A stretch of 64,000 nt of DNA from an uncultured Erysipelotrichaceae bacterium (GTDB lineage Bacteria > Bacillota_I > Bacilli_A > RF39 > UBA660), in contig CACYFN010000003.1 in assembly GCA_902773675.1 (NCBI GenBank), positions 3,209 through 67,208 on the forward strand. The letters are read 5' to 3'. A program made the position numbers and the translations under genes. Below the pieces are notes generated by a model, which was given only the letters and a program-made list of their open reading frames with translations, had not been told where the DNA came from and ran no database searches. Shown piece by piece: positions 796 to 23,173 of this stretch; the stretch's first letter is position 1, and each line of letters begins with the position of its first letter.

Positions 796-861
796 AAATA
801 GTCCCCCTTTTTCCAAATTATTTTATCATAAATATAAAAAAAATCAAATTAAAAGAAGAAA

Positions 862-1188
862 CTATCTTTTTCTTCTTAACACCTTAGCTTCTTCTCTAGT
901 AATACCATGTTCAGATAAAATAGCACCCTCTAAATCATAAACAGGTATTTCTTGTAATTCCCAATTTTTCTTAATATATTTAGTTATATCAATCCCTACT
1001 TGCATAAGTCTTATATACATTGACATATATTCACTAGGTATATCTGGATTTATAATTAAATCTTCATTAATACCAATAAGACACATTGCATATTTAATAA
1101 CACGCATCTGTTCCATAGAAAATTGGCCACTTCTTTTAATAATTTCTAACTTTGTATCAATATCATATTTCATAGAATCACTCACCAA
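862..1188 (-). CDS. Hypothetical protein (108 aa), co-directional between tmcAL and the kinase-like gene
   Basis: ORF-track ORF. No recognisable motif. Tight spacing within a three-gene minus-strand operon. Confidence 0.4.
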   Translation of the reverse strand: MVSDSMKYDIDTKLEIIKRSGQFSMEQMRVIKYAMCLIGINEDLIINPDIPSEYMSMYIRLMQVGIDITKYIKKNWELQEIPVYDLEGAILSEHGITREEAKVLRRKR

Positions 1189-1197
1189 TACAATATT

Positions 1198-2367: not shown

Positions 2368-2471
2368 AACTATTATATAAAAAAAATAAATAAAATACTA
2401 TATTTAAAAAAAAATATAATATATCTTTTAATTATTTATAAAAAATGATATAATTAACCATAGGTGATGGT

Positions 2472-5157: not shown

Positions 5158-6049
5158 AATTATCAAAAGAAGTATTAGAGATTCAATGAAAAGTGTATTT
5201 AGAAACTTTTCACTTTCACTTGCTTCAATATCCTGTATAACAATTACCTTAATAGTAGTAGCTATATCAATAGTATTATCTTATAATGTTAATAACTTTA
5301 CTGATATTATCGAAAAAAATGTAACTATGGTTATATTTCTCGATAGCGATGTTACTGATGAACAAATAGAAAATATTCAAAAAGAACTAAAAAAAATAGA
5401 TAATGTAAATACAAAAACAGTTAAATTTATTGACAAAATGTCTATTGCTGATGATATGATGGAATCATCTGAAATATTAAAAAGCGTTATGGAAGATTAT
5501 ACTAGAGAAAATAGCCCATTACAAGACACATTTCAATTAAAAGTAAAAGATATTAATAAAATAGATAAAACAGCTAAAAAAATATCTAATATCGACGGTG
5601 TTGATCTTGTAAAATACGGCGAAGAAATGGTAAAAAAATTAGTTAAAGCATTTGATGTAGTAAGAAAAGGATGCATCTATATAGTAATAGCCTTAATATT
5701 GGTAACAGCATTCTTAATATCCAATACAATTAAAATAACAATTTTCTCAAGAAAAAGAGAAATAGAAATAATGCGTTTAGTAGGAGCTTCTAATATTAAT
5801 ATTAAAATACCTTTTATATTAGAAGGATTATTACTAGGTTTACTAGGTTCAATTGTACCAGTTGTAATAACAATTATAGGATATAATGCCATATATGATC
5901 ATTTCGATGGAGTAATGTTTTCTCAATTTATAAAATTAGTAAAACCAGAACCATTTGTATTCTATGTATCATTAATATTAATTGGTATAGGAATGATAGT
6001 AGGTATGATTGGATCATATCGAGCAGTAAAAAAATACTTAAAAATATAA
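5132..6049 (+). CDS. ftsX: Cell-division permease-like protein FtsX (GTG start)
   Basis: GTG start overlapping the ftsE stop. One N-terminal TM segment, an extracellular domain, then three C-terminal TM segments typical of FtsX. Confidence 0.85.
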   Translation: MSIIVKAFRIIKRSIRDSMKSVFRNFSLSLASISCITITLIVVAISIVLSYNVNNFTDIIEKNVTMVIFLDSDVTDEQIENIQKELKKIDNVNTKTVKFIDKMSIADDMMESSEILKSVMEDYTRENSPLQDTFQLKVKDINKIDKTAKKISNIDGVDLVKYGEEMVKKLVKAFDVVRKGCIYIVIALILVTAFLISNTIKITIFSRKREIEIMRLVGASNINIKIPFILEGLLLGLLGSIVPVVITIIGYNAIYDHFDGVMFSQFIKLVKPEPFVFYVSLILIGIGMIVGMIGSYRAVKKYLKI

Positions 6050-6075
6050 TACCAAATTTTGGTATTTTTTTTATG
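6049..6075 (+). terminator. Putative rho-independent terminator after ftsX
   Basis: ATACCAA-att-TTGGTAT hairpin followed by T8. The stem is AT-rich, so it is weak. Confidence 0.4.
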
Positions 6076-6170
6076 TATATAAATTGTAAAAAAAATATTG
6101 AAATTTTTGTTAAAAGATGGTAAAATTAATCTAGTATAGGGGAATAAAAAAGAAGAAAAGGGGAATATAT

Positions 6171-7391
6171 ATGTATCAAGATATAGAACAATTATTTGCA
6201 GAAGCTAATAATTCATCTAATAAAATGGATGAAAATTTTTCTAGTGTACAAAATGAAAAAACATCATATGAAAATTTCAAAGTAGAAGAAAACAATAATA
6301 AACCAGATATTGATTCGTATTTAGGAAATCAAAATATTGTAGAACAACAAATTAATAGTTTCAATAGTTCTGATATCTTTACATCAAGTCCTAAGTATGA
6401 TAGTAATACAAAATATGATAGTAATACTAGTTATATTAACCCAGTTCATAATGAAAAGGTAGATCAAAAAGTATTTGAAGAACCAAAAAAAACAAAAAAA
6501 GAAAATAAATATGAAAAAATAACTGATATGAATAATCTATTTGATAACTTATCTGCTGATGTACAGGGAGCAACAGATTTTATAACAGATGTTATGTCTG
6601 CTCGAGATGAAATAAGTAGAGAAAAACGAAAGCTTGAAGAAATGTATGAAAAACTAGAAAATGAGAAAAAAGATTTCAATAAATTAATGAAAGCAAAAGA
6701 AGAAAAATTTGCTAAAGAAAAACTTGATTTTGATGAATTTGTCGAAACCAAAAAAGCCAATTTAGAAAGATTAGAACGTCAAACACAAATTGATATAGAT
6801 AATGCTAATATCGAACTTGATAGTAAGAAAAATGAATTAGAACTTATGAAGAGTAGATTAGAAGCAGAAAAAAATGATTTTGAAAACTACAAAAAATTAG
6901 AACAAGATAGCATAAAAGATGAATATGCAAAATTAGAAGAAGATAAAAATAGTTTTGTAGAATATCAAAAAGTAGTTAATGAATCACTTGATAGTGACAG
7001 AAAAAATCTAGAAGCCGACAAAACAAATTTTGAAAACTATAAAAAATTAGAAGAAGAAAAATTAATAATAGAAACAGAAAAGAAAAAACAGGAAATAGAA
7101 AAATTAGTTGCCGTTCAAAAATTAGAAGCAAATACATTTAAACAAGATAAAGCAGAAATAGAAAGAACTAAAGAACAATTTGAAAAATATAAAGTACTTG
7201 AAAATAATAAATTATATAATGAAAGAGAAGTACTTAACGCTGAAAGAAGACAATTTGAAAAATATAAAGAAACATCAGAAAAGAAATTAGAATTAACAAA
7301 TAAAAACTTAGAAGAAAAATATGCTGAATTTAAAGATGTAATTAAACAATTCAATACAAAATTTAGAAAAGAAGAAAAGGAAGAGGTGTAG
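6171..7391 (+). CDS. Repeat-rich K/E coiled-coil protein (no signal peptide)
   Basis: Long ORF with TTGAAA-17-TAAAAT promoter-like sequence upstream (6099-6127). It has roughly 40-aa periodic repeats of the type K-NDFENYKKLE/E or KTNFENYKKLEEE or EQFEKYKVLE or RQFEKYKETSE. Confidence 0.6.
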   Translation: MYQDIEQLFAEANNSSNKMDENFSSVQNEKTSYENFKVEENNNKPDIDSYLGNQNIVEQQINSFNSSDIFTSSPKYDSNTKYDSNTSYINPVHNEKVDQKVFEEPKKTKKENKYEKITDMNNLFDNLSADVQGATDFITDVMSARDEISREKRKLEEMYEKLENEKKDFNKLMKAKEEKFAKEKLDFDEFVETKKANLERLERQTQIDIDNANIELDSKKNELELMKSRLEAEKNDFENYKKLEQDSIKDEYAKLEEDKNSFVEYQKVVNESLDSDRKNLEADKTNFENYKKLEEEKLIIETEKKKQEIEKLVAVQKLEANTFKQDKAEIERTKEQFEKYKVLENNKLYNEREVLNAERRQFEKYKETSEKKLELTNKNLEEKYAEFKDVIKQFNTKFRKEEKEEV

Positions 7392-7394
7392 TTG

Positions 7395-8720
7395 ATGCCA
7401 ACAAATTTTAATGAAAATGATATAACAACAAATAATGATTCAAATTTTGAATTTGATGGTAATTTAGATAATAATGATAATAGTTTGGTAAATGAATTTA
7501 ACGCTCAAGATGACAATAATTTTGATTTAGCATCAATTTTAAATGATGATAGCTCTATAATGGATGATTATAATAATGGATTCTTATTTGATAATGCTTC
7601 AAATGATAATCAAGATGATTATAAATTAGATTTTGAAAATGGTGATAATAATACTGAAAATAACAATCAAATAGAAGATGAAGTTGTTCAAAATGAAGAG
7701 CCAAATAATAATGATGAAGAAATGAATCCAACTGCAGATAGAATATTCAATGATATTAAAAATGATAATTTTAATTATGAAACAATTGGAGAAAAATTAG
7801 ATAATAATGTTGATATAAACGATGATTCATTTATGAATTTTAATGTTGAAAATGATAATGAATATGACTATGATAATATTCCTATAAATGAAAGTTTATT
7901 TAGTAGTAATTTTAATGAAAATCAAAACGAAACTATAGAAGATAATAATGAAGAACAATCAAATGAGTATAATGAAGATGAGGATAACTCACTAGAAAAT
8001 ATTAAAATTGATACAATCGAAGAAGAAAATGAAGATAATACATCAGAAAAAAATGAACCAACAATAGATAGCAAACAAGAAGAAAAAGAAGATTTCTATA
8101 AAGAAATGGATAATTCAATTGAAGATTTGAAAGCTAATACAGATTTTACAATCAATGAAAATGAAAATGTTTTATCAGATATAAATAATCTATTTGCTAA
8201 AGTAAATAATAATGTTAAAGAAGCGAGTGATATATTTAATCGTAATGTCGAAATGAAAAAAATACTTGATAATAGATTCGAAGAATTAAAACAATTACAA
8301 GCTGAAATAGAAGAAAGTAAAAAGAAAAATTATGATGAAATAAATGAATATAAAGAAGAAGTAATCAATAATCTTACTGAAAAGAAGAATGAAATAGAAG
8401 AAAAATTAGAATTACTAAAGAAAACGCAAGCAGATTTTGATAAAGAAAAAAATGAATTTGAAACATACAAGAAAGATGAAATTGATAAAATCACAAAAAT
8501 GCGTAAAGAAGAAGAAGAAAAATTTGATGCTCGTAGAAATGAATTAAATGAATTAGAAGATAAACTAAGAAAACAAAAAGATTTCTTAGAGGATGAGAAA
8601 AGACAATTAAGCTTAGATCAAATTCAATATGAAAGTGATAAAAATGAACTAGCCAACAATATGATTAAATTTAATGATATTGTATCAAAATTTACAAATG
8701 GCATTGACGGAATAAATTAA
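7395..8720 (+). CDS. Acidic N/D-rich low-complexity protein with a C-terminal coiled-coil paralogous to the preceding gene
   Basis: ATG at 7395 (the track begins at an in-frame TTG at 7392). The N-terminal 250 aa are dominated by N/D/E. The C-terminal 150 aa carry FDKEKNEFETYKKDE-type repeats resembling those in 6171..7391. Confidence 0.6.
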   Translation: MPTNFNENDITTNNDSNFEFDGNLDNNDNSLVNEFNAQDDNNFDLASILNDDSSIMDDYNNGFLFDNASNDNQDDYKLDFENGDNNTENNNQIEDEVVQNEEPNNNDEEMNPTADRIFNDIKNDNFNYETIGEKLDNNVDINDDSFMNFNVENDNEYDYDNIPINESLFSSNFNENQNETIEDNNEEQSNEYNEDEDNSLENIKIDTIEEENEDNTSEKNEPTIDSKQEEKEDFYKEMDNSIEDLKANTDFTINENENVLSDINNLFAKVNNNVKEASDIFNRNVEMKKILDNRFEELKQLQAEIEESKKKNYDEINEYKEEVINNLTEKKNEIEEKLELLKKTQADFDKEKNEFETYKKDEIDKITKMRKEEEEKFDARRNELNELEDKLRKQKDFLEDEKRQLSLDQIQYESDKNELANNMIKFNDIVSKFTNGIDGIN

Positions 8721-8773
8721 CAATAATTGTTAATTTTTTTCTGTTTCATGGTATAATAAATTAGGGGATAGCT

Positions 8774-9661
8774 ATGAATAATACAGTAAAAAAATTTTTA
8801 GATTATTTAAAATATGAAAGGAACTATTCTGATAATACTATAATTGGATATCATAATCATTTAACACTTTTTACAAACTTTATATACATAAAAAAAATAA
8901 ATAATATTAATGATATAGATTATAATATTATCCGTAATTATATAAATTATTTATATGAAAATAATTATAGCCCAAAAAGCATATGTAATCATATAAGTTC
9001 CTTACGTAGCTTTTTTAAATATTTAAAAAATGAAGAACTTATAAAAAATAATCCAATGATATTAATAGAAAATCCAAAATTAGAAAAAAAGTTGCCTAAA
9101 TATTTATACTATGAAGATTTAGAAAAAATACTAAATACTCCTGATTTAAATACAAATACAGGAATTCGTGATGCATTAATCTTAGAACTATTATATGTAA
9201 CAGGAATACGTGTAAGTGAACTTGTAAACATAAAAATACAAGATATAGATATATCAAATCAAAAAATTAAAATAACCGGAAAAGGTAATAAACAAAGAAT
9301 AGTAATGTATGGAAAAAAATGTCAAGAGTTACTAGATAAATATTTAAACATTAGAAACTTATTATTAAAAGATAATAATGATTACTTAATACTAGGAGTA
9401 AAAGGAAAAAAAATTAATGATCGTGTAATAAGAAATATTATAAATAATCTATCCATAAAAGCAGGATTAAACTTAAAAATATCACCTCATACATTTCGGC
9501 ATACATTTGCTACCCATATGTTAAATGAAGGAGCAGATCTACGTAGTGTACAAGAATTATTAGGCCATGAAAATCTATCAACAACAACCATTTATACCCA
9601 TGTAACAAATGAAAGATTAAGGAACGTTTATCTTCATTCTCATCCAAGAGCTAGGGGGTAA
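8774..9661 (+). CDS. Tyrosine site-specific recombinase, XerC/XerD family
   Basis: C-terminal catalytic region HTFRHTFATHMLNEGADLRSVQELLGHENLSTTTIYTHV with conserved R, H-x-x-R and Y. Extended -10 TGgTATAAT sits just upstream (8745-8753). Confidence 0.8.
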   Translation: MNNTVKKFLDYLKYERNYSDNTIIGYHNHLTLFTNFIYIKKINNINDIDYNIIRNYINYLYENNYSPKSICNHISSLRSFFKYLKNEELIKNNPMILIENPKLEKKLPKYLYYEDLEKILNTPDLNTNTGIRDALILELLYVTGIRVSELVNIKIQDIDISNQKIKITGKGNKQRIVMYGKKCQELLDKYLNIRNLLLKDNNDYLILGVKGKKINDRVIRNIINNLSIKAGLNLKISPHTFRHTFATHMLNEGADLRSVQELLGHENLSTTTIYTHVTNERLRNVYLHSHPRARG

Positions 9662-9663
9662 CT

Positions 9664-10140
9664 ATGTATAAAGATGAAATAAAAGACTTAAAACAAGCAA
9701 AAAAAGAAGCTTTAAATATATTTTATAAAGATTATATTAATATTTATATAAAACTATTAATAGGATATCCTAATTTAAAAAAAGAAAGAAATATTTTAAA
9801 ATACCTATATAAACAATATATAAAATTTGATAATAATGAAACAGAAGTACTTAATTTAATAAGTAAAATTCATGGTAATAAAGAAAATATTGATTTAATA
9901 GATAATCTATTAGACGAATTTGATAAAATATTCGAAAATTATTATGACTATCTTAGTGAGTGTCTATATGGCTATGAATCAACAATTAATGACGATATTA
10001 TAAATATAATTATTAATAGGATAAAAGGTGATTATTTAAAAATAGATAATGAAAGATATAGAATGAAATTACCTAAAATAGGTAAAACATTTAATAATGA
10101 ATATAAAGAAAAGATATTAAAACAAATAAGGAGTATATAA
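9664..10140 (+). CDS. Hypothetical K/Y-rich protein (158 aa)
   Basis: ORF tightly coupled between the Xer-type recombinase gene and tdk. No recognisable motif. Confidence 0.45.
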   Translation: MYKDEIKDLKQAKKEALNIFYKDYINIYIKLLIGYPNLKKERNILKYLYKQYIKFDNNETEVLNLISKIHGNKENIDLIDNLLDEFDKIFENYYDYLSECLYGYESTINDDIINIIINRIKGDYLKIDNERYRMKLPKIGKTFNNEYKEKILKQIRSI

Positions 10141-10722
10141 ATGTCAAAATTATATTTTAGATATGGAGCAATGAACTGTGGTAAAACAACTGCTCTACTA
10201 CAGGTAGCCCATAATTATGAAGAAAAGGGATTAAAAGTAATAGTAATAAAATCATCAATTGATAAAAAAGGAGATTCTAATATTGTATCAAGATTAGGAG
10301 TAGAAAGAAAGGTAGATATATTATTACCACCAGCAGAATCAATAAAAAATAGAATAAAACTAGATAATTTAAATTGTATATTAGTAGATGAAGCCCAATT
10401 CTTAACAAAAGAACAAGTAAAAGAATTATGGTTAATAGCTAAACTATATAATATACCAGTAATTTGCTATGGACTAAAAACAACCTTTAAAGGAGAATTA
10501 TTTGAAGGAAGCAAAATACTATTTGAATTGTCAGATGTCTTAGAAGAACTAGTAACAATATGTTCATGTGGTCACAAAGCCAAATTTAATGTAAGAAAAG
10601 TAAATAGCAAAATAGTATCAACTGGTGATGATGTAGCAATTGATGGCTATGATAATGTAACATATGAACCAATGTGTGGAAAATGCTATATTGAAAAAGT
10701 ATTAAAAATTAAATCTTTATAG
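10141..10722 (+). CDS. tdk: Thymidine kinase
   Basis: P-loop GAMNCGKTT, plus a C-terminal zinc ribbon CSCGHKA...CGKCY characteristic of type II thymidine kinases. Confidence 0.9.
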   Translation: MSKLYFRYGAMNCGKTTALLQVAHNYEEKGLKVIVIKSSIDKKGDSNIVSRLGVERKVDILLPPAESIKNRIKLDNLNCILVDEAQFLTKEQVKELWLIAKLYNIPVICYGLKTTFKGELFEGSKILFELSDVLEELVTICSCGHKAKFNVRKVNSKIVSTGDDVAIDGYDNVTYEPMCGKCYIEKVLKIKSL

Positions 10723-10725
10723 CAT

Positions 10726-10762
10726 TTGAAATATAAGTAATAAAATGATATAATTTTATAAG
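10726..10762 (+). promoter_or_regulatory. Putative sigma-A promoter for ppdK (TTGAAA-17-TATAAT)
   Basis: TTGAAA at 10726-10731, 17-nt spacer, TATAAT, then the AAGGAGAGG RBS before the ATG at 10779. Confidence 0.45.
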
Positions 10763-10778
10763 AATAAGGAGAGGTTAC

Positions 10779-13406
10779 ATGAAAAAATATGTATATGACT
10801 TTAATGAAGGTAACAAAGATATGAGAAATATCCTAGGAGGTAAAGGAGCTAACTTAGCCGAAATGACGAACATTGGTTTACCTGTTCCAAGTGGATTTAC
10901 AATCTCAACTGAAGCCTGTTTAGAATATTTAAAAAATAAAACCGAAATACCAGATAATATAACAAATGAAATATTTAATCATATTAAAATATTAGAAGAA
11001 AAAACAGGAAAATTATTTGGAAATAAAGATAATCCATTATTAGTATCTGTAAGAAGTGGTGCTCCAATTTCCATGCCAGGAATGATGGATAGTATTTTAA
11101 ATATTGGTCTTAATGATGAAATAGCTGAATCATTTTCTAAACAAACAAATAATCCTCATTTTGTATATGATTCATATCGTAGACTAATTCAAATGTTTTC
11201 AGATGTTGTAAAAGGTGTTCCAAAAAGTAATTTTGAATGCTTATTTGAGCAAATAAAAAAAACAAGAGGAAAAGAAGAATTTGAATTTACAGAAGAAGAA
11301 CTAAAAGGAATCATAAAACTTTATAAAGATGAGTATTTTGAATCAACAAAAGAACAATTCCCAGAAAATCCATATACACAGTTAATAGAAACAGTTGAAG
11401 CAGTATTTCTATCTTGGAATAATGATCGAGCAATAACATATAGAAAATTAAATGATATATCTAATGATTTAGGAACAGCTGTTAATGTTCAAACAATGGT
11501 ATATGGTAACTTAGGAGAAAATAGTGGAACAGGAGTAGCATTTACCCGTAATCCAGCAACCGGAGAAAATAAACTATTTGGAGAATATTTAATAAATGCC
11601 CAAGGAGAAGATGTCGTAGCAGGAATACGTACACCAGAATCTATTGATACCCTAAAAGAAGTAATGCCTGACTGTTATAAAGAATTTGAAAGTATTTGTA
11701 AAATATTAGAAAACCATTATAAAGATATGCAAGATATGGAATTTACTATTCAAAATGGTAAACTATATATGCTACAGACAAGAAATGCTAAAAGAACAGG
11801 ATCTTCAGCTATTAAAGTAGCTCTTGATATGATTAATGAAGGACTAATTACCAAAGAAGAAGCTATTTTAAGAGTAGAACCTAATCTATTAGAACAATTA
11901 TTACATCCAACATTTGATCAAGATGAACTAAATAATCAAGTACCAGTAGCTAAAGGACTTCCAGCTTCTCCTGGATGTGCAACAGGCAAATTATTTTTTA
12001 ATGTAAAAGATTTAAAAGAAGCTAAAGATAAAGGTGAAAAAGATTTAATATTAATAAGAATTGAAACATCACCAGAAGATATAGATGGAATGCAAATTGC
12101 TAATGGTATATTAACTATTAGAGGAGGAATGACCTCGCATGCTGCCGTAGTAGCTCGTGGAATGGGTACATGTTGTGTATCAGGATGTAGTGATATAGTA
12201 GTAGATGAAGCAAATAAAGTAATAAAAGTAAATGATTTAGAGGTCCATGAAGGAGAATACATTAGTCTAGATGGAAATACAGGTAATGTATATATTGGAA
12301 AAATAGATACTAAAGAACCAGAAATAAGTGGCGATTTTAAAACATTTATGGATTTAGCTGATACATATAGAAAATTAAGAGTAAGAGCTAATGCTGATAA
12401 TCCTAAAGATGCAAATACAGCTCGTAAATTTGGTTCCGAAGGAATAGGACTATGTAGAACAGAACACATGTTCTTTAACCCAGAAAGAATATTTGAATTT
12501 AGAAAAATGATAGTAGCAGATACCGAAGAACAAAGACAAAACGCCCTAAATAATATCTTGCCTTATCAAAGAAGTGACTTTGAAGCATTATTTGAATCCC
12601 AAGAAGGAGATCCAGTTATCATTAGATACCTAGATCCACCATTACATGAATTCTTACCAAAAAAAGAAGAAGAAATAAAAGAACTAGCTACAAGTTTAAA
12701 TATGTCATATGAATCATTAAAAGAAAGAATAGATGATTTAAAAGAATTTAATCCAATGATGGGACATCGTGGATGTAGATTAGATATAACATATCCAGAA
12801 ATAGCTGTAATGCAAACAAAAGCTGTAATAGAAGCAGCAATAAATGTAACAAAAAAAGGATTAAAAGTAAAACCAGAAATAATGATACCATTAATAGTAG
12901 ATGAAAAAGAATTAAAATTCATTAAAGATATCATAACTAATACAGCAGATAAAATTATAAAAGAAAACAATATAGAATTAGAATATATGGTAGGTACAAT
13001 GATTGAAGTACCACGTGCAACATTAATAGCCGATAAACTAGCTAAACATGCCCAGTTCTTTAGCTTTGGTACAAATGATTTAACACAACTTACATATGGC
13101 TTCTCAAGAGATGATGCATCTAAATTTTTAAAAGATTATTATGATAAAAATATCTTTGAGAGTGATCCATTTGCTAAAATAGATAGGGAAGGTGTAGGAA
13201 GATTAGTATATATGGCTATAAGAAAAGCAAAACAAATAAGAAATAATATCGAACTAGGTATATGTGGAGAACATGGAGGAGAACCAAGTAGTATCAATTT
13301 CTGCCAACTAATAGGTTTAGATTATGTATCTTGTAGTCCATATAGAGTTCCAATAGCTCGTCTTGCTGCTGCCCAAGCCGCAATCAAAGCAAAGAAAAAT
13401 AAATAA
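10779..13406 (+). CDS. ppdK: Pyruvate, phosphate dikinase
   Basis: An 875-aa protein with an N-terminal ATP-grasp region (GGKGANLAEM), the central phosphohistidine segment GGMTSHAAVVARGMG and a C-terminal PEP-utilising TIM-barrel domain. Confidence 0.95.
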   Translation: MKKYVYDFNEGNKDMRNILGGKGANLAEMTNIGLPVPSGFTISTEACLEYLKNKTEIPDNITNEIFNHIKILEEKTGKLFGNKDNPLLVSVRSGAPISMPGMMDSILNIGLNDEIAESFSKQTNNPHFVYDSYRRLIQMFSDVVKGVPKSNFECLFEQIKKTRGKEEFEFTEEELKGIIKLYKDEYFESTKEQFPENPYTQLIETVEAVFLSWNNDRAITYRKLNDISNDLGTAVNVQTMVYGNLGENSGTGVAFTRNPATGENKLFGEYLINAQGEDVVAGIRTPESIDTLKEVMPDCYKEFESICKILENHYKDMQDMEFTIQNGKLYMLQTRNAKRTGSSAIKVALDMINEGLITKEEAILRVEPNLLEQLLHPTFDQDELNNQVPVAKGLPASPGCATGKLFFNVKDLKEAKDKGEKDLILIRIETSPEDIDGMQIANGILTIRGGMTSHAAVVARGMGTCCVSGCSDIVVDEANKVIKVNDLEVHEGEYISLDGNTGNVYIGKIDTKEPEISGDFKTFMDLADTYRKLRVRANADNPKDANTARKFGSEGIGLCRTEHMFFNPERIFEFRKMIVADTEEQRQNALNNILPYQRSDFEALFESQEGDPVIIRYLDPPLHEFLPKKEEEIKELATSLNMSYESLKERIDDLKEFNPMMGHRGCRLDITYPEIAVMQTKAVIEAAINVTKKGLKVKPEIMIPLIVDEKELKFIKDIITNTADKIIKENNIELEYMVGTMIEVPRATLIADKLAKHAQFFSFGTNDLTQLTYGFSRDDASKFLKDYYDKNIFESDPFAKIDREGVGRLVYMAIRKAKQIRNNIELGICGEHGGEPSSINFCQLIGLDYVSCSPYRVPIARLAAAQAAIKAKKNK

Positions 13407-13482
13407 AAACAAGCTAAAGTATTATTCTACATTTGATTAAAAAATAGATTAATTAAACTACACTGATAGGAGGAAAGTTCTT

Positions 13483-14628
13483 ATGGGAATGGGAATAATA
13501 AAAGAAATCGATAGAATTTTAAAAAGCTCTCATTATAGGCCTATATTCCTTAAACTAAACAGTATTGACAATGATTCCACATTATTTAGCATATTAGATA
13601 ATATGCAAGAAAGTGAAAAGGAAGAGTTAGAAGAAGCTATTATTGGTTTAACATTAAGAGAAGAAATAAGCAAAGAAGAAAACAATATTCTAAATAAATA
13701 TAAAAATTATGTAATGAAAAAATCAAACAAAAATATTATGGAATATCTAAATAATAATTATTTAAGTTTTTTATACCATAAAGAATTTGAAGAAATAGTT
13801 AAAGATAGTAATTATGATTCGCAAATAAATCAAAAATCTATTTGGGAAATATATCAAGAACTATGTGATAAATTCAATGAAATAAGTGCCAAACTAGAAA
13901 ATAATACTAAACTTACAAATGAAGAGCACAAATTTTTTAAAAAGTATTTGTTAAGCACAGCATTTTATGATATGATTAATAAAAAGTATGAGGATGAAAA
14001 TGATATTATGTATGATGTAGTTGAATATTTTGATAAATATCCAATTACAAATTTTAATAATATTGAAAATAGACAACTATATATACTATATAATTTATCA
14101 AAACAACTTCTTAAAATAAATGTAGATAGTATTATTACATTTGATAGATATCATAATGAAGAAGACATTAGATGTGAAGGATTTTATAAAAAATTATCTG
14201 ATGGAAGATATCAAATAAATATAAGTAATCTAGAAGACATATATTTGAAAGATGAGAAAACAATGTATGAAAGTTTATTTACAGTCTTTCATGAACTTGG
14301 TCATTTAATGCAAGAAATAAATAATGATGCTTATCCAAAAGAAATTCAAGAATTATTTAAGTGGGAAAAGTATATAATAAATAAAGATAACTCTTTTTAT
14401 AAAAAATATCATGATAGTTTCTATTTAGAAGTAGATGCTGATCAATACGCCTTAACTAAGATGTTAGAATTATTTAAAGAAGAAAAACCAGAGTTTATTA
14501 TTCACTTAATTAATAAAGAAAAGAATAAGAAGAAGATAGAATTTTCAAAATTTTGTAATATTTTATATCAAAAGTATAATCAATTAATTGCTAATCAAGA
14601 AAAAAAATCAGCGCAACAACACCATTAA
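13483..14628 (+). CDS. Putative zinc metallopeptidase-like protein (HExxH; possibly ImmA/IrrE-like), no signal peptide
   Basis: HELGHLMQE motif at residues 270-278. It lies between ppdK and the XRE/DinD-like modules. No other family signature is recognisable. Confidence 0.5.
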   Translation: MGMGIIKEIDRILKSSHYRPIFLKLNSIDNDSTLFSILDNMQESEKEELEEAIIGLTLREEISKEENNILNKYKNYVMKKSNKNIMEYLNNNYLSFLYHKEFEEIVKDSNYDSQINQKSIWEIYQELCDKFNEISAKLENNTKLTNEEHKFFKKYLLSTAFYDMINKKYEDENDIMYDVVEYFDKYPITNFNNIENRQLYILYNLSKQLLKINVDSIITFDRYHNEEDIRCEGFYKKLSDGRYQINISNLEDIYLKDEKTMYESLFTVFHELGHLMQEINNDAYPKEIQELFKWEKYIINKDNSFYKKYHDSFYLEVDADQYALTKMLELFKEEKPEFIIHLINKEKNKKKIEFSKFCNILYQKYNQLIANQEKKSAQQHH

Positions 14629-14663
14629 CAAAACGATAATTATAGTCAAAATAATTTTAATTA

Positions 14664-14723
14664 ATGTTTTGCATCCCAAACAAGGCAGTAGTACAAGCTG
14701 CAATTAAAGCGAGAAAAATTTGA
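14664..14723 (+). other. Diverged remnant of a ppdK 3' end (copy 1)
   Basis: A short frame encodes MFCIPNKAVVQAAIKARKI*, compared with the authentic PpdK C-terminus RVPIARLAAAQAAIKAKKNK*. It is similar at the protein level but diverged at the nucleotide level. Confidence 0.5.
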
Positions 14724-14785
14724 ACGCAAAAGCGTCCCAACAATTATATATCAAAAGATTAAATAGAAATATTTAGTCTTTTTTA

Positions 14786-14835
14786 TTGATTTGTTTGTTG
14801 CAAATATGCTACAATATATTTGCAAGGAGAGAAAT
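14786..14835 (+). promoter_or_regulatory. Promoter with operator inverted repeat for XRE copy A
   Basis: TTGATT-18-TACAAT. The perfect 10-bp inverted repeat TTGCAAATAT (14798-14807) / ATATTTGCAA (14816-14825) flanks and overlaps the -10. A GGAGAG RBS follows. Confidence 0.5.
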
Positions 14836-15084
14836 ATGAATAAGATAAATGCTGAATTAATAAATGATGATGAATTTGATTTAATATGTAAATATATAAA
14901 ATTAAGAAATGAATCAAATATCAGTCAAACTGAATTAGCAAGAAAAGTGGGTATAGCTAGATCAACAATAGCTAGAATGGAAAGAAATCTACATTCTATA
15001 TCACTTGGAACTTTTACTAGATTATTAGAAGTAATGAATTATAAATTAGAAATAATAAAAAAGGAGGAAAAAAATGAAAAATGA
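14836..15084 (+). CDS. XRE-family helix-turn-helix transcriptional regulator (copy A)
   Basis: HTH segment ISQTELARKVGIARSTIARMERN. ATG at 14836 (the track ORF starts at an upstream in-frame TTG). About 90% identical to copy B at 16129. Confidence 0.8.
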   Translation: MNKINAELINDDEFDLICKYIKLRNESNISQTELARKVGIARSTIARMERNLHSISLGTFTRLLEVMNYKLEIIKKEEKNEK

Positions 15085-15907
15085 TATAATAGCATTAAAT
15101 AAAACGTTTGAAAACGAGAAAATTAGAACTATATGGAATAAGGACGAAGAAAAATATTATATTAGTGTAGTTGATATAGTAAAAGTTTTAATTGATTGTG
15201 ATTATCAACAAGCTAGAAATAATTGGAAAGTTATAAAATTTAGGTTAAAAAAAGAAGGAAATGAAACGGTTACAAATTGTAACCAGTTGAAATTGTTGTC
15301 ACAAGATGGAAAATATCGTTTAACTGATGTAGTTGATATTGAAGGAATGTTTAGGGTTATTGAATCAATTCCATCTAAAAAAGCTGAACCAATTAAGTTA
15401 TGGCTTGCTCATTTAGGAAAAGAGAGAATAGATTAAGAATACGATCCTGAAATAACAATTAATCGAGCGTTAGAAACATATAGAAGAAAAGGTTATTCTG
15501 ATGATTGGATTAATCAAAGATTAAAAGCAATTGATGCAAGAAAAGAATTTACTGATGAATTAAAGAATAATGGTATTGAAAGTAGCAAAGATTTTGCTAT
15601 TTTAACAGATTTATTAACGAAAGTATGGAGTGGCTATACAACTAAGGAATATAAACAATATAAAGGATTAACAAAAGAAAATTTAAGAGATAATATGACT
15701 AATATGGAATTAGTACTTAATATGTTAGCAGAAGTAACATCAACTGAAATAGCTAAGTCAAATGATAATAAAAATAAGGATAATGCTAAAGATTCAGTTA
15801 TACAAGGCGGTCTAATTGCTAAAAACACAAAAGAACAAATAGAAAGTAAAACCGGTAAAAAAATAGTAACAAGTACAAATAATAAAAATATAAAACAAAT
15901 AAAATAA
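15074..15907 (+). pseudogene. DinD/Bro-N-like DNA-damage-inducible protein, copy A, interrupted by an in-frame TAA at 15434-15436
   Basis: One reading frame 15074..15907 with a single internal stop (ERID*EYDPEI); copy B reads ERIDEIFDPSI at the same place. Bro-N core KYRLTDVVDIEGMFRVIESIPSKKAEPIKLWLAHLG, and a C-terminal part alignable with E. coli DinD. Confidence 0.5.
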
Positions 15908-15928
15908 GATATAAATAAGTCATTTTAG

Positions 15929-16030
15929 TTGGATACAGAACGTTATGTCGTTCCAATAAGGTTTCCAATTGATTACGATTCACAAGCTGCAATCAAAGCA
16001 AAGAATAGTAAAAAGAAAAAAACTAGGTAA
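15929..16030 (+). other. Diverged remnant of a ppdK 3' end (copy 2)
   Basis: An open frame encodes LDTERYVVPIRFPIDYDSQAAIKAKNSKKKKTR*. This aligns with the PpdK C-terminus ...LDYVSCSPYRVPIARLAAAQAAIKAKKNK*. Confidence 0.5.
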
Positions 16031-16078
16031 TTGAAGTGATGTGTCCTTCAAATAGTTCACAAAAACTAGTTTTTTTTG

Positions 16079-16128
16079 TTGATTTATTTGTTGCAAATAT
16101 GCTACAATATATTTGCGAGGAGAGAAAT
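16079..16128 (+). promoter_or_regulatory. Promoter with operator inverted repeat for XRE copy B
   Basis: Near-identical to 14786-14835. TTGCAAATAT (16091-16100) / ATATTTGCGA (16109-16118) around TACAAT. Confidence 0.5.
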
Positions 16129-16380
16129 ATGAATAAGATAAATGCTGAATTAATAAATGAGGATGAATTTGATTTAATATGTAAATATATAAAATTAAGA
16201 AATGAATCAAATATCAGTCAAACTGAATTAGCAAGAAGAGTGGGTATAGCTAGATCAACAATAGCTAGAATGGAAAGAAATTTGCATTCAATGTCACTCG
16301 GAACTTTTATTAAATTGTTAGAAGCAATGAATCATAAACTAGAAATAGTCAAAAAGGAGGATACTAATGAATCAAGATAA
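16129..16380 (+). CDS. XRE-family helix-turn-helix transcriptional regulator (copy B)
   Basis: MNKINAELINEDEFDLICKYIKLRNESNISQTELARRVGIARSTIARMERN. Paralogue of copy A. Confidence 0.8.
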   Translation: MNKINAELINEDEFDLICKYIKLRNESNISQTELARRVGIARSTIARMERNLHSMSLGTFIKLLEAMNHKLEIVKKEDTNESR

Positions 16381-16526
16381 AATGTATTTAATTAATAAAT
16401 AAATTATTTAATAATAAAACTATAAGAACAGTATGGGACAAGGATGAGGAAAAGTACTATGTTAGTGTAGTTGATGTAGCTGGAGCAGCTTCTGATAGTG
16501 ATAATCCTAGAAAGTATTGGAATTGG

Positions 16527-17237
16527 TTGAAAAATAAAATAACAAAAGAAGAAAATTTTGAAACGTCTAGTATTACTAGACAGTTGAAATTGAAAGCTCA
16601 AGATGGTAAATATCGTATGACTGATGTTGTAGATATTGAAGGTATGTTTAGAATAATAGAGTCTATTCCAAGTAAAAATGCAGAACCAATTAAGCAGTGG
16701 TTAGCTCGTTTAGGTAGTGAAAGAATAGATGAAATATTTGATCCTTCAATAGCAACTCAAAGATCTATCGATTTATATCGTGCTAAAGGATTTGATGAAA
16801 AATGGATTACTGAGAGAATAAAAAGTATTCAAAATAGAAAAGAATTAACTGACATTTGGAAAGATGGAGGAATAACTGATTCAAAAGAATATGCAATTCT
16901 TACTAATGAGATATATAAAGAATGGTCTGGAATGAAAGCAAGTGAGTACAAAGAATTTAAAGGGTTAAGAAAAGAATCATTAAGAGATAATATGACTCGT
17001 ATGGAAGAATTGCTTACAGATTTAGGAGAAGAAACAACAAAAGAATTAGCTAAAGAGTATAAACCAGTTGGATTAGAAGCAAATAAGAAAATAGCAAGAA
17101 TGGGTGGAAACACTGCTAAAGTAGCTAGAGAAGATATAGAAAGAAAATTAAATAGGACTATAATAACATCTAATAATAATTTAAATTATAAATATATAGA
17201 AGAAAACAAAGAAATAGAAAATAAACAGATTGTTTAA
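16527..17237 (+). CDS. DinD/Bro-N-like DNA-damage-inducible protein, copy B (frame open from 16392; N-terminus degenerate, first ATG at 16527)
   Basis: The upstream in-frame segment ...KTIRTVWDKDEEKYYVSVVDV matches the N-terminus of copy A, but it is preceded by a stop, and an out-of-frame ATG (MYLINK*) lies just upstream. The C-terminal region DFAILTNEIYKEWSG...KGLRKESLRDNMTRMEELLTDLGEETT resembles E. coli DinD. Confidence 0.55.
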   Translation: MKNKITKEENFETSSITRQLKLKAQDGKYRMTDVVDIEGMFRIIESIPSKNAEPIKQWLARLGSERIDEIFDPSIATQRSIDLYRAKGFDEKWITERIKSIQNRKELTDIWKDGGITDSKEYAILTNEIYKEWSGMKASEYKEFKGLRKESLRDNMTRMEELLTDLGEETTKELAKEYKPVGLEANKKIARMGGNTAKVAREDIERKLNRTIITSNNNLNYKYIEENKEIENKQIV

Positions 17238-17337
17238 GTTTTTTTGAATATTTATAAGTTTTTAAAATTTATTATAAATAAAACATATAAGTATGATATA
17301 ATATAAATAATAGTAAGAAGTAGAGGAAGTAATTTAA

Positions 17338-17922
17338 ATGAAGAAAGGAATACTTTTAGCTATCATTTTATGTGGAATTCTATTATTTACAGGTTGCGAC
17401 AAAGAAGCAGGATCAAAGGAAATTAGCGGTATCAAAATATATAATGATTCAACAACTTATGCATACAAAAAAACTTTTGGAGGAGAATACTATTTACTAG
17501 TTATAAGATATGACAAATTAGGAAACTTTAAATATCTAGAATATACTGATAATTATGATTTAGATGAATCTGAACCAGAAACTAAAGCATATTCCGATAA
17601 AGAATTACAAAAACTTGCAGAAGAAGATGAATGCAAACATCTTGAAAATCTAGATTATGATGAATTTAAATCAATATGTAAAGTAAAAAATCATATTTTT
17701 ACTTATGGTTATTCAATAACAGATAAAACAATTAGTTCAGGATTATTAAATGAAAATGGATATAATGAATGGGGAATATTACCATCCATAATTGGAGACT
17801 TTAAATCAGTTGAAAATGAAGCAGCCGCTAAAGAATTATTCAATAAAACTAAAGAAAATTTGAATGCAAGTGATGGAGATTTTATGATATTTGCTAATAA
17901 AAAATTAGAATTAAATAATTAG
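17338..17922 (+). CDS. Lipoprotein (hypothetical)
   Basis: Signal peptide with lipobox LFTGC (MKKGILLAIILCGILLFTGCDKE). Confidence 0.7.
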   Translation: MKKGILLAIILCGILLFTGCDKEAGSKEISGIKIYNDSTTYAYKKTFGGEYYLLVIRYDKLGNFKYLEYTDNYDLDESEPETKAYSDKELQKLAEEDECKHLENLDYDEFKSICKVKNHIFTYGYSITDKTISSGLLNENGYNEWGILPSIIGDFKSVENEAAAKELFNKTKENLNASDGDFMIFANKKLELNN

Positions 17923-18503: not shown

Positions 18504-19850
18504 ATGGATATAAAAACAAAAGCAAAATTATTCGCAATTAAAGCACATGATGGACAAAGAAGAAAAAGTGATAAAGAAAAACCAATGATAATTCATCCTA
18601 TAAATGTAGCTAATATATTAGAAGAATATAAGCTTGATGATAATGTTATTGCAGCCGGATATCTTCATGATGTAGTAGAAGATACAAAATATGAATTAAA
18701 AGATATAGAAGAAAATTTCAATGAAGATATAATGTCATTAGTAGAAGGTGCTAGTGAACCAGATAAAAGCCTTTCCTGGGAAGAAAGAAAGAAGCACACC
18801 ATAGATACAACTAAAAACTTAGATCTACGTCATAAAGCCATAATATGCGCAGATAAAATAAGCAACTTAGAAGATTTAAGAATATTAATAGAAACAACAG
18901 ACAATTTTGTTTTTTCATCATTTAAAAGAGGATTTGAATCTCAAAAATGGTATTATACAGAAGTATATAATAGCCTAATTTATAATGAAGATGAAAGCAA
19001 TGAAATGTTTATTAGATTAAAAAAACTAATAGATCATATCTTTTATAATCAAAAAGATAATTACATCCAAGATATAATATTTAAAGATAATATTGAAGAG
19101 TTAAATAAACTTAATAAACTACATTATCAAAAAGAAGAATTATATAAATTAAAATGCTTATTAGAAACAGTTCCATATGTAATAGAATTTACAGGTACTC
19201 CTAGAACTGGTAAAACAACATTAATAAACAATTTATATGATTTTTTTAAGAAAAAGGGGTTTATTGTAGAAGTATTAGAAGAATTTACAACATCAAAAAA
19301 ATATAAACAAGAAATATATCCAACATTAAAAGATAAATATAAAAATGTAGTAAATACAGAAATACCAAAATATGTATTAAAACAATTAGAAGAATCAATT
19401 TCTAATAAACCAGATATAATTATAATAGATAGATCGTTATTTGATAGATTAATATGGGTAGATAGATTACATTTAAAAGATGGTATGAGTAAAGAAGAAT
19501 ATGAAGAATATAAAAAATTATATATTCCATTAATAAAAGATAAAATAGATATAATAATTGCTACATATACTGATGCTTTAACATCTCTTAAAAGAGATTA
19601 TTTTGCTCATTTATCACTTGAAAAAAGAAGTTTTCTAAATGAAACAAATGTTAACGAATATAATCATTCATTACTAAATATGCAAGAATTAACTAAATCA
19701 GAAGAAATAAATCTATATTTATTTGATACAACAAATATAAATCAAAGAGAATTATCATTTGAAGTAGCAGAAACTATACTAAAAGATATGAAGAAAAAAT
19801 ATATTAAAAGAATAAATGATAATAAAGAATTAATTAAAAAACAAGACTAG
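18504..19850 (+). CDS. Two-domain protein: N-terminal HD-domain (p)ppGpp-hydrolase-like, C-terminal P-loop nucleoside/nucleotide-kinase-like
   Basis: The N-terminus AHDGQRRKSDKEKPMIIHPINVANILEEY...AAGYLHDVVEDT is the RelA/SpoT/SAH-type HD motif. The C-terminus has Walker A GTPRTGKTTL and a DRS-like IIIDRSLFDRL segment as in dNK/TMPK-family kinases. Confidence 0.6.
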   Translation: MDIKTKAKLFAIKAHDGQRRKSDKEKPMIIHPINVANILEEYKLDDNVIAAGYLHDVVEDTKYELKDIEENFNEDIMSLVEGASEPDKSLSWEERKKHTIDTTKNLDLRHKAIICADKISNLEDLRILIETTDNFVFSSFKRGFESQKWYYTEVYNSLIYNEDESNEMFIRLKKLIDHIFYNQKDNYIQDIIFKDNIEELNKLNKLHYQKEELYKLKCLLETVPYVIEFTGTPRTGKTTLINNLYDFFKKKGFIVEVLEEFTTSKKYKQEIYPTLKDKYKNVVNTEIPKYVLKQLEESISNKPDIIIIDRSLFDRLIWVDRLHLKDGMSKEEYEEYKKLYIPLIKDKIDIIIATYTDALTSLKRDYFAHLSLEKRSFLNETNVNEYNHSLLNMQELTKSEEINLYLFDTTNINQRELSFEVAETILKDMKKKYIKRINDNKELIKKQD

Positions 19851-19919
19851 CATAACTAGTTTTTTCTTTACTTAAAAACAAAAATTATGATATACTATTA
19901 TTGTTTCGTAGGAGGGTAT

Positions 19920-22091: not shown

Positions 22092-22161
22092 TAAAAAAAA
22101 GAAACCGCCCCCTGAGCAGTTTCTATAAAAGAATAAAAAGGGGTTGGCTAGTGTGATACTA

Positions 22162-22192
22162 GCACCAATTCGGTTTTCCGAACTGGTGCTTT
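22162..22192 (+). terminator. Putative terminator hairpin downstream of tex
   Basis: GCACCAATTCGG-tttt-CCGAACTGGTGC (one mismatch) followed by TTT. It is preceded by a second small hairpin GCTAGT-gtgat-ACTAGC. The T-tract is short. Confidence 0.4.
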
Positions 22193-22299
22193 ATATACTA
22201 AATCAAAAAAGGTATTTTGTCAAGCACTTTTTTGATTTTTTTTGAATTTTATAAAAATAATTAAATTTTTGAATATATTATTACTAAGTAAGGAGGATT

Positions 22300-22627
22300 A
22301 TGAAAAAATATTTAATAATAATTATTATTTTCTTAGTAGGATGTAGTAAAAAAAAAAAAAGAAATATTAGTATGCAATAATCAAGATACAGAAATAACCT
22401 TTAATTTTGAAAATAACAAATCCATAAACTATCAAAAAGTAACTCATATTAAACTAAATAATAATCAAGAAGCCATGAATTATAAAAATGATGATTATGA
22501 TAAACTAGAAGTAGTAGATAATATAGTAAATATGTATATAGATGAAAAAATAGATGATATGAATATTGAAGAAGTAAAATCATTATATGAAAAATCTGGA
22601 TATAACTGCAAAAAAAAATCACCATAG
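22300..22627 (+). pseudogene. Lipoprotein gene interrupted by a frameshift at an A13 homopolymer (phase-variation candidate)
   Basis: AAGGAGG RBS, then ATG and MKKYLIIIIIFLVGC (lipobox LVGC). The A13 run (22348-22360) gives a stop after 26 codons. The frame one base further along is open from 22361 to the TAG at 22625-22627 and encodes about 88 more residues. Confidence 0.55.
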
Positions 22628-22630
22628 TGA

Positions 22631-22864
22631 TTAATTATCTGAAAATAAATCATTAATACTTATATTTAGAGCCTTACAAATATTAAGCATAGTAGATAAA
22701 GTAACATTTTTATATTCTTTACACGATTCAATTTGTTTAATATAAGAAATACTAAAATTAGCCTTTTCCGCAAGCTGTTCCTGAGTTAAATTTAACTTAT
22801 TTCTATAATATTTAACATTATTACTAAATATATTATAATTATTCAAAATATCATTATTCTTCAT
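22631..22864 (-). CDS. XRE-family HTH transcriptional regulator
   Basis: LTQEQLAEKANFSISYIKQIE HTH. It is divergent from a second HTH gene. Confidence 0.7.
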   Translation of the reverse strand: MKNNDILNNYNIFSNNVKYYRNKLNLTQEQLAEKANFSISYIKQIESCKEYKNVTLSTMLNICKALNISINDLFSDN

Positions 22865-22963
22865 AGTACCACCTACTTGAGATTATTTTCTCATATTTTT
22901 TTTATTAAATCAGTACACTATCAGTGAACTATATGATATAATATCTAAAGAAAGAAGGATATT

Positions 22964-23173
22964 ATGCATAACAAATTAAAAGAAATAAGATTAAAAAATC
23001 ATTATACTCAAAAATATATGGCTGAAAAACTAAAAATAAGTAAACCATTCTATTCATTCCTAGAAAATGATAAAAGAATCCTAACATATGATATGGCTAT
23101 CAAAATAGCTAAAATATTTAATACAAAACCAGATAGATTATTTTATGAAGAACATGTAAATAGAGTTGATTAA
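22964..23173 (+). CDS. XRE-family HTH transcriptional regulator (Cro/CI-like small protein)
   Basis: YTQKYMAEKLKISKPFYSFLEN HTH. Divergently arranged with 22631..22864 across a 100-bp intergenic region. Confidence 0.65.
   Translation: MHNKLKEIRLKNHYTQKYMAEKLKISKPFYSFLENDKRILTYDMAIKIAKIFNTKPDRLFYEEHVNRVD

Follow-up and report, generated by a model that had tools for sequence, protein, structure and literature searches.

A probable site-specific attachment site for small recombinase-less cassettes at the 3' end of ppdK in an uncultured Bacilli lineage

How do small accessory genes come to stand behind one conserved gene, separated from each other by copies of that gene's last codons? This question is raised by a 64,000-nt stretch of DNA from an uncultured Erysipelotrichaceae bacterium (GCA_902773675.1, contig CACYFN010000003.1, positions 3,209-67,208 of the forward strand), referred to here as the window. 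Directly downstream of its ppdK gene lie a gene for an HExxH protein and two modules, XRE1-BroN1 and XRE2-BroN2, each consisting of an XRE-type regulator and a gene with a Bro-N domain. The initial annotation had placed an integration hotspot with displaced and replacement tails here, and all the features that it named are present at their positions. In the following, L-numbers denote compared loci or contigs and P-numbers denote PpdK proteins. We consider it probable, at roughly three chances in four, that the ppdK 3' end is a site-specific attachment site for small cassettes without a recombinase, which stack into arrays.

The ppdK-tail core CAAGCYGCAATYAA occurs three times in the window, at 13374 inside ppdK, at 14694 and at 15983 (c0, c1 and c2). 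The HExxH gene is flanked by the cores at 13374 and 14694, and XRE1-BroN1 by those at 14694 and 15983. Beyond these three positions, the motif CAAGCNGCNATNAA has no further exact copy in the 64-kb window; when one mismatch is allowed, 5 matches are found against 0.6 expected. Local alignment of the ppdK tail with the intergenic regions gave a score of 51 for remnant 2 (at c2), reached by 0 of 2000 shuffles, and of 32 for remnant 1 (at c1), reached by 3 of 2000. As a control, each of 64 window genes was compared with its own downstream sequence, and ppdK had the best match to its own tail (E 1e-6), with all others at 2.5e-4 or worse. A repeat finder aligned the ppdK end to 15983-16025 with 84% identity over 43 nt and paired 14693-14731 with 15982-16020. 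Significant likeness to ppdK is confined to the core and the sequence after it, with an abrupt left edge in all copies, while the flanks upstream of each core copy, including the stretch read as '…VPI..', stay at shuffle level. Hence the resemblance of both remnants to the PpdK C-terminus, proposed in the initial annotation, stands for the core and what follows it but not for the upstream '…VPI..' part. Two further ideas, that the protein-level remnants are longer and that the 3' flanks of the cassettes derive from ppdK coding sequence by decay, were rejected, as neither rose above shuffles. The intergenic stretch 17238-17337 after BroN2 is not ppdK-tail-like and holds no core copy.

The alleles of closely related strains indicate what the repeats stand for. 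The conspecific metagenome contig L306 is 99.91% identical to window positions 779-13400 and then resumes at 14693-14822, and a second one, L307, is 99.75% identical to 9400-13400 and resumes at 14695-14792. In both of them ppdK leads into a native tail (…ARKI), a hairpin terminator and the XRE1 promoter, and the HExxH gene is absent. The C-terminus of the L306 protein P0298, …AAAQAAIKARKI, is exactly remnant 1, while P0297 of L307 ends in …AAAKAAIKARKI. PpdK is intact in the empty (874 aa) as well as the occupied (875 aa) allele, and the junction is precise. The 875-aa window PpdK (…AKKNK) shares its 90% protein cluster with 874-aa variants. The cassette is present in the window, L001-L005 and L305, and absent from L306 and L307. 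The HExxH cassette thus varies between strains, most probably as an insertion, and remnant 1 would be the native tail that it displaced. Judged from these sequences, the current ppdK tail end, …KAKKNK and stop, probably came in with the cassette. Besides L306 and L307, seven conspecific contigs were recovered, and all six that reach past ppdK, among them L001-L004 and L305, share the window layout as far as they extend.

One of these contigs shows a further irregularity. At 12551-12638 of L305, which is 99.98% identical to the window, the ppdK 3' end (equivalent to window 13329-13372) carries a 44-bp tandem duplication that stops exactly at the core and frameshifts PpdK to …AAALVVHIEFQ (P0295, 873 aa). 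This could be the trace of a recombination that went wrong, or else it arose in assembly.

Comparison of the empty site (attB) with the two junctions (attL and attR) confines the crossover to at most 7 bp, which follow GCTGCTGC and reach up to the first diagnostic base in CAAGC(C/T), that is, GCTGCTGC / NCAAGC / Y. This interval holds the centre of a 21-bp imperfect palindrome, TTGCTGCT-GCACA-AGCTGCAA, which spans Leu-Ala-Ala-Ala-Gln-Ala-Ala-Ile codons. We propose that the ppdK codons L-A-A-A-Q-A-A-I, in the dyad-symmetric form TTGCTGCT-GCNCA-AGCYGCAA, would constitute the attachment site and that one- or two-gene cassettes would integrate by crossover at its centre. One end of such a cassette would supply the rest of the ppdK codons, in a version of its own, and a stop, so that the enzyme would stay intact; the other end would be a cassette-specific arm. 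The previous tail and its terminator would be pushed downstream and left as a non-coding remnant, and repeated integration at the gene-proximal copy would build a head-to-tail array. The array in the window would then read ppdK, HExxH (the presumed newest cassette), c1 with the native tail and terminator, XRE1-BroN1, c2 and XRE2-BroN2. This last module may be the earliest cassette, which would then have lost its distal copy, or it may have stood next to ppdK from the beginning. Since the cassettes encode no recombinase, one from elsewhere would have to act in trans, and we infer such mobilisation because a unit that lacks a recombinase is precisely gained or lost.

The insertion also bears on transcription. 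In the occupied allele neither a terminator nor a scanned promoter was found between ppdK and HExxH, and folding of 13400-13482 is at shuffle level, so the HExxH cassette is probably transcribed from ppdK. The terminator at 14753-14784 serves ppdK in cassette-free strains and here probably ends a ppdK-HExxH transcript. This hairpin was also considered as part of a special recombination site, a candidate that was rejected: terminators with the same ACTAG…CTAGT stem recur in the genome at 19845-19868 and 31492-31520, and the junction hairpins thus reflect a habit of the lineage.

Could such alleles arise without any dedicated recombinase? Excision and re-entry of cassettes by RecA-dependent or microhomology-driven exchange between tail copies of ~25-45 nt, or their replacement through transformation with flanking homology, would agree with the absence of an integrase from every array (as far as our limited screens reach) and with the likeness of the tail copies over 23-43 nt. 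The distal part of the repeat is the better conserved one in L015, as gene conversion would give, and the XRE-promoter segments of this genome are homogenised (93% at the nucleotide level vs 70% for BroN). However, perfect identity between c0 and c1 runs for only 5-7 nt, the left flanks have no significant homology, and in both independent empty alleles the crossover is not spread over the similarity but falls right at its left end, where the dyad has its centre. Homologous exchange also leaves the origin of the first tail copy unexplained, and in another phylum there is experimental support for these codons as an integrase target (PMC11005914). We therefore regard homology-driven exchange as quite unlikely and favour site-specific catalysis at the ppdK core.

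If ppdK offers an attachment site, other hosts should be expected to carry other cargo behind it. PpdK homologues were found at 59-93% identity to the window protein, and the relatives compared here are uncultured Bacilli or 'Tenericutes' metagenome-assembled genomes. Broad scans of genome and metagenome contigs with the PpdK C-terminus, whose listed matches have at most 72% identity, were used as a background set. The relatives carry from one to at least six unrelated cassettes, each ending in a core copy; ppdK is not in view in two loci. The first slot behind ppdK differs between hosts, being taken by HExxH in the window, Inositol_P in L166, GNAT in L169 and Fic in L088. The content behind ppdK thus varies and an empty site exists in L306 and L307, as the hotspot proposal and its suggested comparison of empty and occupied sites had foreseen.

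The order of units was followed in several of these loci. In L166 (PpdK 87%), ppdK is followed by Inositol_P, a core, deaminase and tRNA-synthetase fragments, a core, a type II XRE-BroN, a core with terminator, and IS110. In L169 (PpdK 78%) the order is ppdK, GNAT, a decayed core with terminator and ligA, and in L088 it is ppdK, Fic and a core. The locus L178-L180 (GCA_017544165.1, PpdK 59%) reads ppdK, a 265-aa gene, a T-box with a class II aminoacyl-tRNA synthetase (aaRS), HAD, an XRE fragment, a type I XRE-BroN, a core with terminator and core genes; four cores lie downstream of ppdK in L178, which has 4-5 units, all on the plus strand. Within 14.8 kb of L171 there are six cores against 0.21 expected. 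They separate HTH, SerRS, a 453-aa gene, WYL with a partner, XRE-BroN and HAD in six or more units on the plus strand; ppdK itself lies outside the 15-kb locus and is the presumed anchor of this array. L015 holds three near-identical copies of tail, stop and terminator, L014 an XRE regulator and methyltransferases behind ppdK, and L024 a 7-kb island behind ppdK. Over 171 loci, the core motif was found 37 times downstream on the plus strand, 11 times on the minus strand and 5-6 times upstream, these counts including some coding false positives.

The flanks of the cargo genes are shared between hosts as well. One common 3' flank of ~100 nt accompanies the aaRS cassettes of L166, L171 and L178, and the BroN 3' flank is common to the window, L166, L171 and L303. 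The HExxH 3' flank with its core recurs in L176, where it stands beside a fucosidase gene rather than ppdK. Tail variants in core copies, e.g. …KSKGQSK, equal real PpdK termini of other species, which fits cassette movement between hosts. Decay can be seen in older core copies, as in c1 and c2 of L166 and in L169.

Several cassettes deserve mention in their own right. Accessory class II aaRS genes occur as cassettes at 6093-6375 of L178, with a T-box leader (Rfam, 107 bits), and at 1450-1795 of L171. At 1740-3100 of L015, both cassettes behind ppdK start with one ~250-nt leader that holds two imperfect ~60-nt repeats and precedes a 167-aa gene, which gives the look of an RNA-plus-protein module; it has no Pfam or PADLOC match, and TRF and Rfam were empty. 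A type III toxin-antitoxin system was considered for it and set aside for want of a Pfam or PADLOC match and of a TRF array. In L166 an IS110-family transposase gene (16198-17478) follows just after the last copy of core, terminator and promoter, and beyond it stand two other genes, one of the RhuM family and one GIY-YIG.

The two XRE-BroN modules of the window could at first sight have a simpler origin. They are true paralogues, with promoter and XRE 93% identical over 300 nt (14774-15073 vs 16067-16366) and BroN genes 70-75% identical, and both have TTGATT-18-TGnTACAAT overlapping a 28-bp palindrome, TTGCAAATAT-N8-ATATTTGCAA. The paralogous modules with promoter, inverted-repeat operator and XRE-family HTH regulator described in the initial annotation were thus confirmed. 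Local tandem duplication, in which the ppdK tail through XRE-BroN was copied in place and then diverged without any mobile DNA, would explain why core, XRE and BroN share one register of ~1,290-1,300 bp and why XRE and promoter are 93% identical. Against this, BroN1 and BroN2 are only 53% identical as proteins, while BroN1 is 81-86% identical to the proteins of L171, L178 and L173 and BroN2 is 85% identical to that of L166. Being closer to genes of other species than to each other, the two genes have separate origins, and other arrays hold unrelated genes between their cores. Local duplication is accordingly very improbable, and the view that the genes were acquired, which the recurrence of the HExxH cassette in L176 also supports, is upheld.

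The XRE identity is better accounted for by conversion or recombination within one genome. XRE1 and XRE2 are 88% identical to each other and 76-78% identical to those of L166 and L171, in which the XRE1 promoter/operator is conserved. Hence homogenisation within this genome has acted on the XRE-plus-promoter segment; the BroN genes next to it, of different subtypes, are ~70% identical. This suggests that gene conversion or recombination keeps both repressors and operators alike, so that cross-regulation is possible.

BroN type I comprises BroN1 and the proteins of L171, L178 and L173 (77-86% identity), and type II comprises BroN2 and L166 (85%), with L089 at 55-58%. Type I proteins are 82-86% identical across hosts whose PpdK is only ~59% identical, and over all the species with close relatives of BroN1 or BroN2, PpdK is ~59-87% identical to that of the window; the comparison indicates that BroN has spread horizontally between hosts. 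Both genes are inactivated in the window. A nonsense codon (GAA>TAA at 15434-15436) interrupts BroN1, which is intact at 277 aa in the conspecific L002, and BroN2 has a +4-nt frameshift near 16394 that is common to L002. The N-terminal domain of BroN1 matches Pfam Bro-N (E 1.2e-8), and its full length matches PADLOC PDC-S13 (E 7.6e-109, residues 9-276) and phrog_15286 (E 1.9e-96). The Bro-N match therefore stands, whereas the 'DinD-like' label of the initial annotation does not, as no NCBIfam family, DinD included, was hit by either BroN protein at E <= 0.01. The idea of a phage-type Bro-N likewise gives way to the PDC-S13 match: relatives occur in only 4 of 50,697 phage records, and one viral-contig homologue (L301) lies inside a helicase/methyltransferase cluster. 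More than 8,000 BroN homologues were found, many on 1-3-kb contigs, and the best 120 are all at least 80% identical. XRE-BroN would be a self-repressed two-gene module, with XRE as predicted autorepressor and BroN in a candidate family enriched in defence islands.

In relatives, XRE-BroN is found without HExxH, and in L172 and L173 the pair also stands directly after a tRNA-linked island. At 1880-6690 of L172 this 4.8-kb island, directly upstream of XRE-BroN, is bounded by a tRNA gene and by a duplicate of a tRNA 3' end. It carries an ABC ATPase, a radical SAM/SPASM gene and a serine recombinase that is truncated; the sister contig L173 (6640-6660) lacks the island. In L089 the BroN homologue has an in-frame TGA at 10735-10737 where its relatives carry Gly, which may point either to a pseudogene or to reassignment of TGA in that host.

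The HExxH protein belongs to a rare family, with 42 representatives among 1.84 billion proteins. Its invariant columns are H270-E271-x-x-H274 and E295. Peptidase_M78 matches the window protein with 17.2 bits (cut-off 22), and weak matches were obtained for 5 of 23 family members, the best at E 3.1e-6. The single-sequence structure model was poor and the alignment-based one confident; fold searches with the latter returned generic helical matches only and no peptidase fold. HExxH homologues have no XRE or BroN neighbours. Because HExxH, XRE and BroN occur separately, they are independent cassettes and not one immunity region; the view of the initial annotation, that their combination is typical of immunity regions of an integrative and conjugative element (ICE) or prophage, is not supported.

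Which enzyme would move such cassettes? Our recombinase screens were limited, consisting of an XerC-seeded profile and of tblastn with a resolvase query of approximate sequence. Within this reach, no recombinase was found in the window beyond XerC, and none in the stretch of up to 10 kb that was screened downstream of ppdK in the Bacilli loci; the downstream screen gave one resolvase match in L098. The XerC-type gene scores 338 bits with the NCBIfam XerC model and 145 bits with that of the integron integrase (cut-off 265). It is on the same strand, 3.7 kb upstream, with three genes between. The order xerC-hyp-tdk-ppdK is kept in many relatives but not all, the XerC gene not being beside ppdK in L178, and no evidence was found of an XerC-type enzyme acting on the ppdK site. 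A dif/Xer-type site or replication terminus was tried and rejected: by eye there is no 11-6-11 layout, the GC skew is positive over 8-22 kb, and the genes stay co-oriented. A phage or viral element with a ppdK-type attP was rejected too, as viral contigs gave no match to the full 23-nt core or to tail plus terminator, the 17-nt pattern matches being without extension.

The lack of a nearby integrase could also mean that the units are leftovers of a large integrase-bearing ICE, integrative and mobilizable element (IME) or prophage, reduced by deletion and now fixed and immobile. Large integrase-bearing ppdK elements do exist in other phyla (PMC11005914), a tyrosine recombinase lies 270-370 nt after ppdK in L122 and L152 (both from the background set, not Bacilli relatives), and large serine-recombinase genes are truncated in the related islands L172 and L303. 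Decay is evident in the older cores of L166 and L169, and both window BroN genes are pseudogenes, in keeping with the 'decayed islets' of the initial annotation. On the other hand, strains with 99.9% identity differ in the presence or absence of a 1.3-kb single-gene unit, and its junctions are exact. The units are uniformly one- or two-gene and co-oriented, in arrays of up to at least six with no integrase fragments between them, and the same unit of cargo plus flank recurs across genomes and contexts. Decayed remnants are therefore an unlikely source, and integrase-less cassettes that are still precisely gained or lost fit better.

Several points weigh against the proposed attachment site. 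Within the species only one cassette, HExxH, was seen to vary, and the occupied/empty polymorphism could in principle reflect deletion between imperfect repeats instead of insertion. The data are mostly metagenome assemblies, which are prone to breaking at exactly the ppdK junction. The accretion model predicts a distal core copy after XRE2-BroN2, and there is none. No cognate integrase was found by the limited screens and no circular cassette junction was observed, and we infer both the catalysis and the mobilisation in trans.

A stronger version of the proposal would see in ppdK a true platform for cassette capture, with promoterless or self-promoted mini-cassettes of ~1-2 kb, each with an attP-like site (arm, core and replacement tail), served by a recombinase in trans. 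We hold this to be doubtful. The candidate enzymes would be the ppdK-syntenic XerC-type enzyme or a large serine recombinase. If true, the platform would be integron-like without IntI or attC and would shuffle defence candidates, T-box aaRS, Fic, GNAT and other genes between species.

The features of the locus are collected in Table 1. The genome is very AT-rich (GC 0.20-0.32), and the base composition of the cassette island is not distinct from that of its flanks.

Table 1. Coordinates of ppdK, the core junctions, the cassettes and neighbouring genes in the window (aa, amino acids; ORF, open reading frame).
Feature	Position	Strand	Description	Basis
XerC-type tyrosine recombinase	8774-9661	+	Sole recombinase gene found in the window; context only	
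ppdK	10779-13406	+	875 aa, anchor gene; last codons hold the attachment core; ends …AAAQAAIKAKKNK, stop	ORF and Pfam context
Junction c0, attL-like	13353-13416	+	Dyad-symmetric TTGCTGCT-GCCCA-AGCCGCAA; core CAAGCCGCAATCAAAGCAAAG from 13374; after the core, replacement tail end apparently supplied by the HExxH cassette	Alignment vs L306/L307
HExxH cassette	13374-14693	+	1,320 bp core to core, one gene, without recombinase	
HExxH protein gene	13483-14628	+	381 aa	
Remnant 1 frame	14664-14723	+	Ends …QAAIKARKI, stop	
Junction c1, attR-like	14694-14723	+	Remnant 1, native ppdK tail, probably displaced; same as functional ppdK end of L306/P0298 and L307/P0297	
Intrinsic terminator	14753-14784	+	Hairpin -13.9 kcal/mol, z -5.2, then T-run; directly 3' of ppdK in L306/L307	
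XRE1 promoter	14786-14825	+	-35 14786-14791; extended -10 TACAAT 14810-14815; overlapping 28-bp palindromic operator 14798-14825	
XRE1	14836-15084	+	82 aa, HTH_3, Pfam E 1.6e-13; 11-nt overlap with BroN1 start	
BroN1 (type I)	15074-15907	+	Bro-N; pseudogene here via TAA 15434-15436	
Remnant 2 ORF	15929-16030	+	Ends …QAAIKAKNSKKKKTR, stop	
Junction c2, remnant 2	15983-16030	+	Core 22/23 identical to c0; decayed tail …KAKNSKKKKTR, stop	
AACTAG…CTAGTT hairpin and T-run after c2	16015-16078	+	Terminator-like, enlarged loop, weak (z -1.8)	
XRE2 promoter/operator	16079-16118	+	-35 16079-16084; -10 16103-16108; palindrome 16091-16118	
XRE2	16129-16380	+	83 aa, HTH_3	
BroN2 (type II)	16367-17237	+	85% identical to L166; pseudogene via +4-nt insertion after codon 11	
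Lipoprotein gene	17338-17922			

Elsewhere in the window, the stretch 22100-22230 right after tex is locally GC-rich and apparently structured, with no Rfam match at the gathering threshold. At 22301-23173 a small lipoprotein-like ORF is broken at an A-run, and 3' of it two small XRE-type genes diverge from each other, one on the minus strand (22631-22864) and one on the plus strand (22964-23173).

The locus offers a defined recombination site, with its core, a crossover of at most 7 bp and both alleles, in an uncultured reduced-genome gut lineage where gene flow is little known. Its arrays amount to a ready-made inventory of accessory genes and defence candidates and explain the assembly breaks at the locus. 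If the mover of these recombinase-less 1.3-kb cassettes proves to be a new trans-acting system, it would represent a compact form of cassette capture distinct from integrons.

The closest precedent for the site itself comes from Bacteroidota, where PvCTn-like conjugative transposons integrate at a 20-bp attB over the same ppdK codons, with imperfect direct repeats and a ppdK stop regenerated within 3 codons, and where several unrelated elements use the site (PMC11005914). As with those elements, the crossover in the window falls in the ppdK 3'-terminal A-A-Q-A-A-I codons (PMC11005914). PvCTn-like elements are large, with an integrase next to attL, a type IV secretion system and regulatory genes, none of which was found in the window or the Bacilli arrays; the window units are in contrast 1.3 kb long, stacked in arrays and from a different phylum. 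Hence the same ppdK codons serve as attachment site in Bacteroidota and, on our reading, in Bacilli, which suggests that both phyla exploit, convergently or in common, a symmetric motif under protein-level constraint. The use of these codons as attB in another phylum was known already, and what is added here is a lineage-wide, array-forming, integrase-less cassette system.

Accretion behind a conserved gene is also known from the Dehalococcoides ssrA islands, which lie in tandem downstream of a single-copy gene, carry a 20-bp direct repeat of its 3' end and have strain-specific content; for some, which have no integration module, cis-mobilizable status was proposed (PMC3146451). Sixteen of those islands have a six-gene integration module including the serine recombinase DsiB, and the islands are several kb or larger, whereas the units described here have one or two genes and no such module was found in any array. 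Cis-mobilizable elements (CIMEs) in general have neither integration nor transfer genes but retain attL and attR, and they accumulate in tandem at a single att site (ICEberg 2.0, PMC6323972). The window units resemble them in their target-derived direct repeats, their precise empty and occupied sites and the absence of integration or transfer genes inside. Classical CIMEs are moved in cis by an adjacent ICE; in the present loci, whose units are much smaller, no partner ICE or IME can be seen.

With regard to cargo, the ImmR/ImmA immunity module is not matched, since HExxH is a separate strain-variable cassette whose homologues are without XRE neighbours. PDC-S13/PHROG 15286 is a defence candidate family by prediction; its members here are paired with an XRE autorepressor, itself predicted, and both copies are inactivated. 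In architecture the locus is most like chromosomal integrons, with small cassettes arrayed on the same strand (three units in the window), a site copy ending each, the presumed newest beside the anchor, and at least one cassette (HExxH) apparently reliant on upstream transcription. Unlike in integrons, there is no adjacent intI, the repeat is a ppdK-tail core and not an attC hairpin, and most cassettes have their own promoter and terminator. Lacking what defines integrons and PvCTn-like elements, the locus is best filed with site-specific accretion or CIME-like elements of integron-like architecture.

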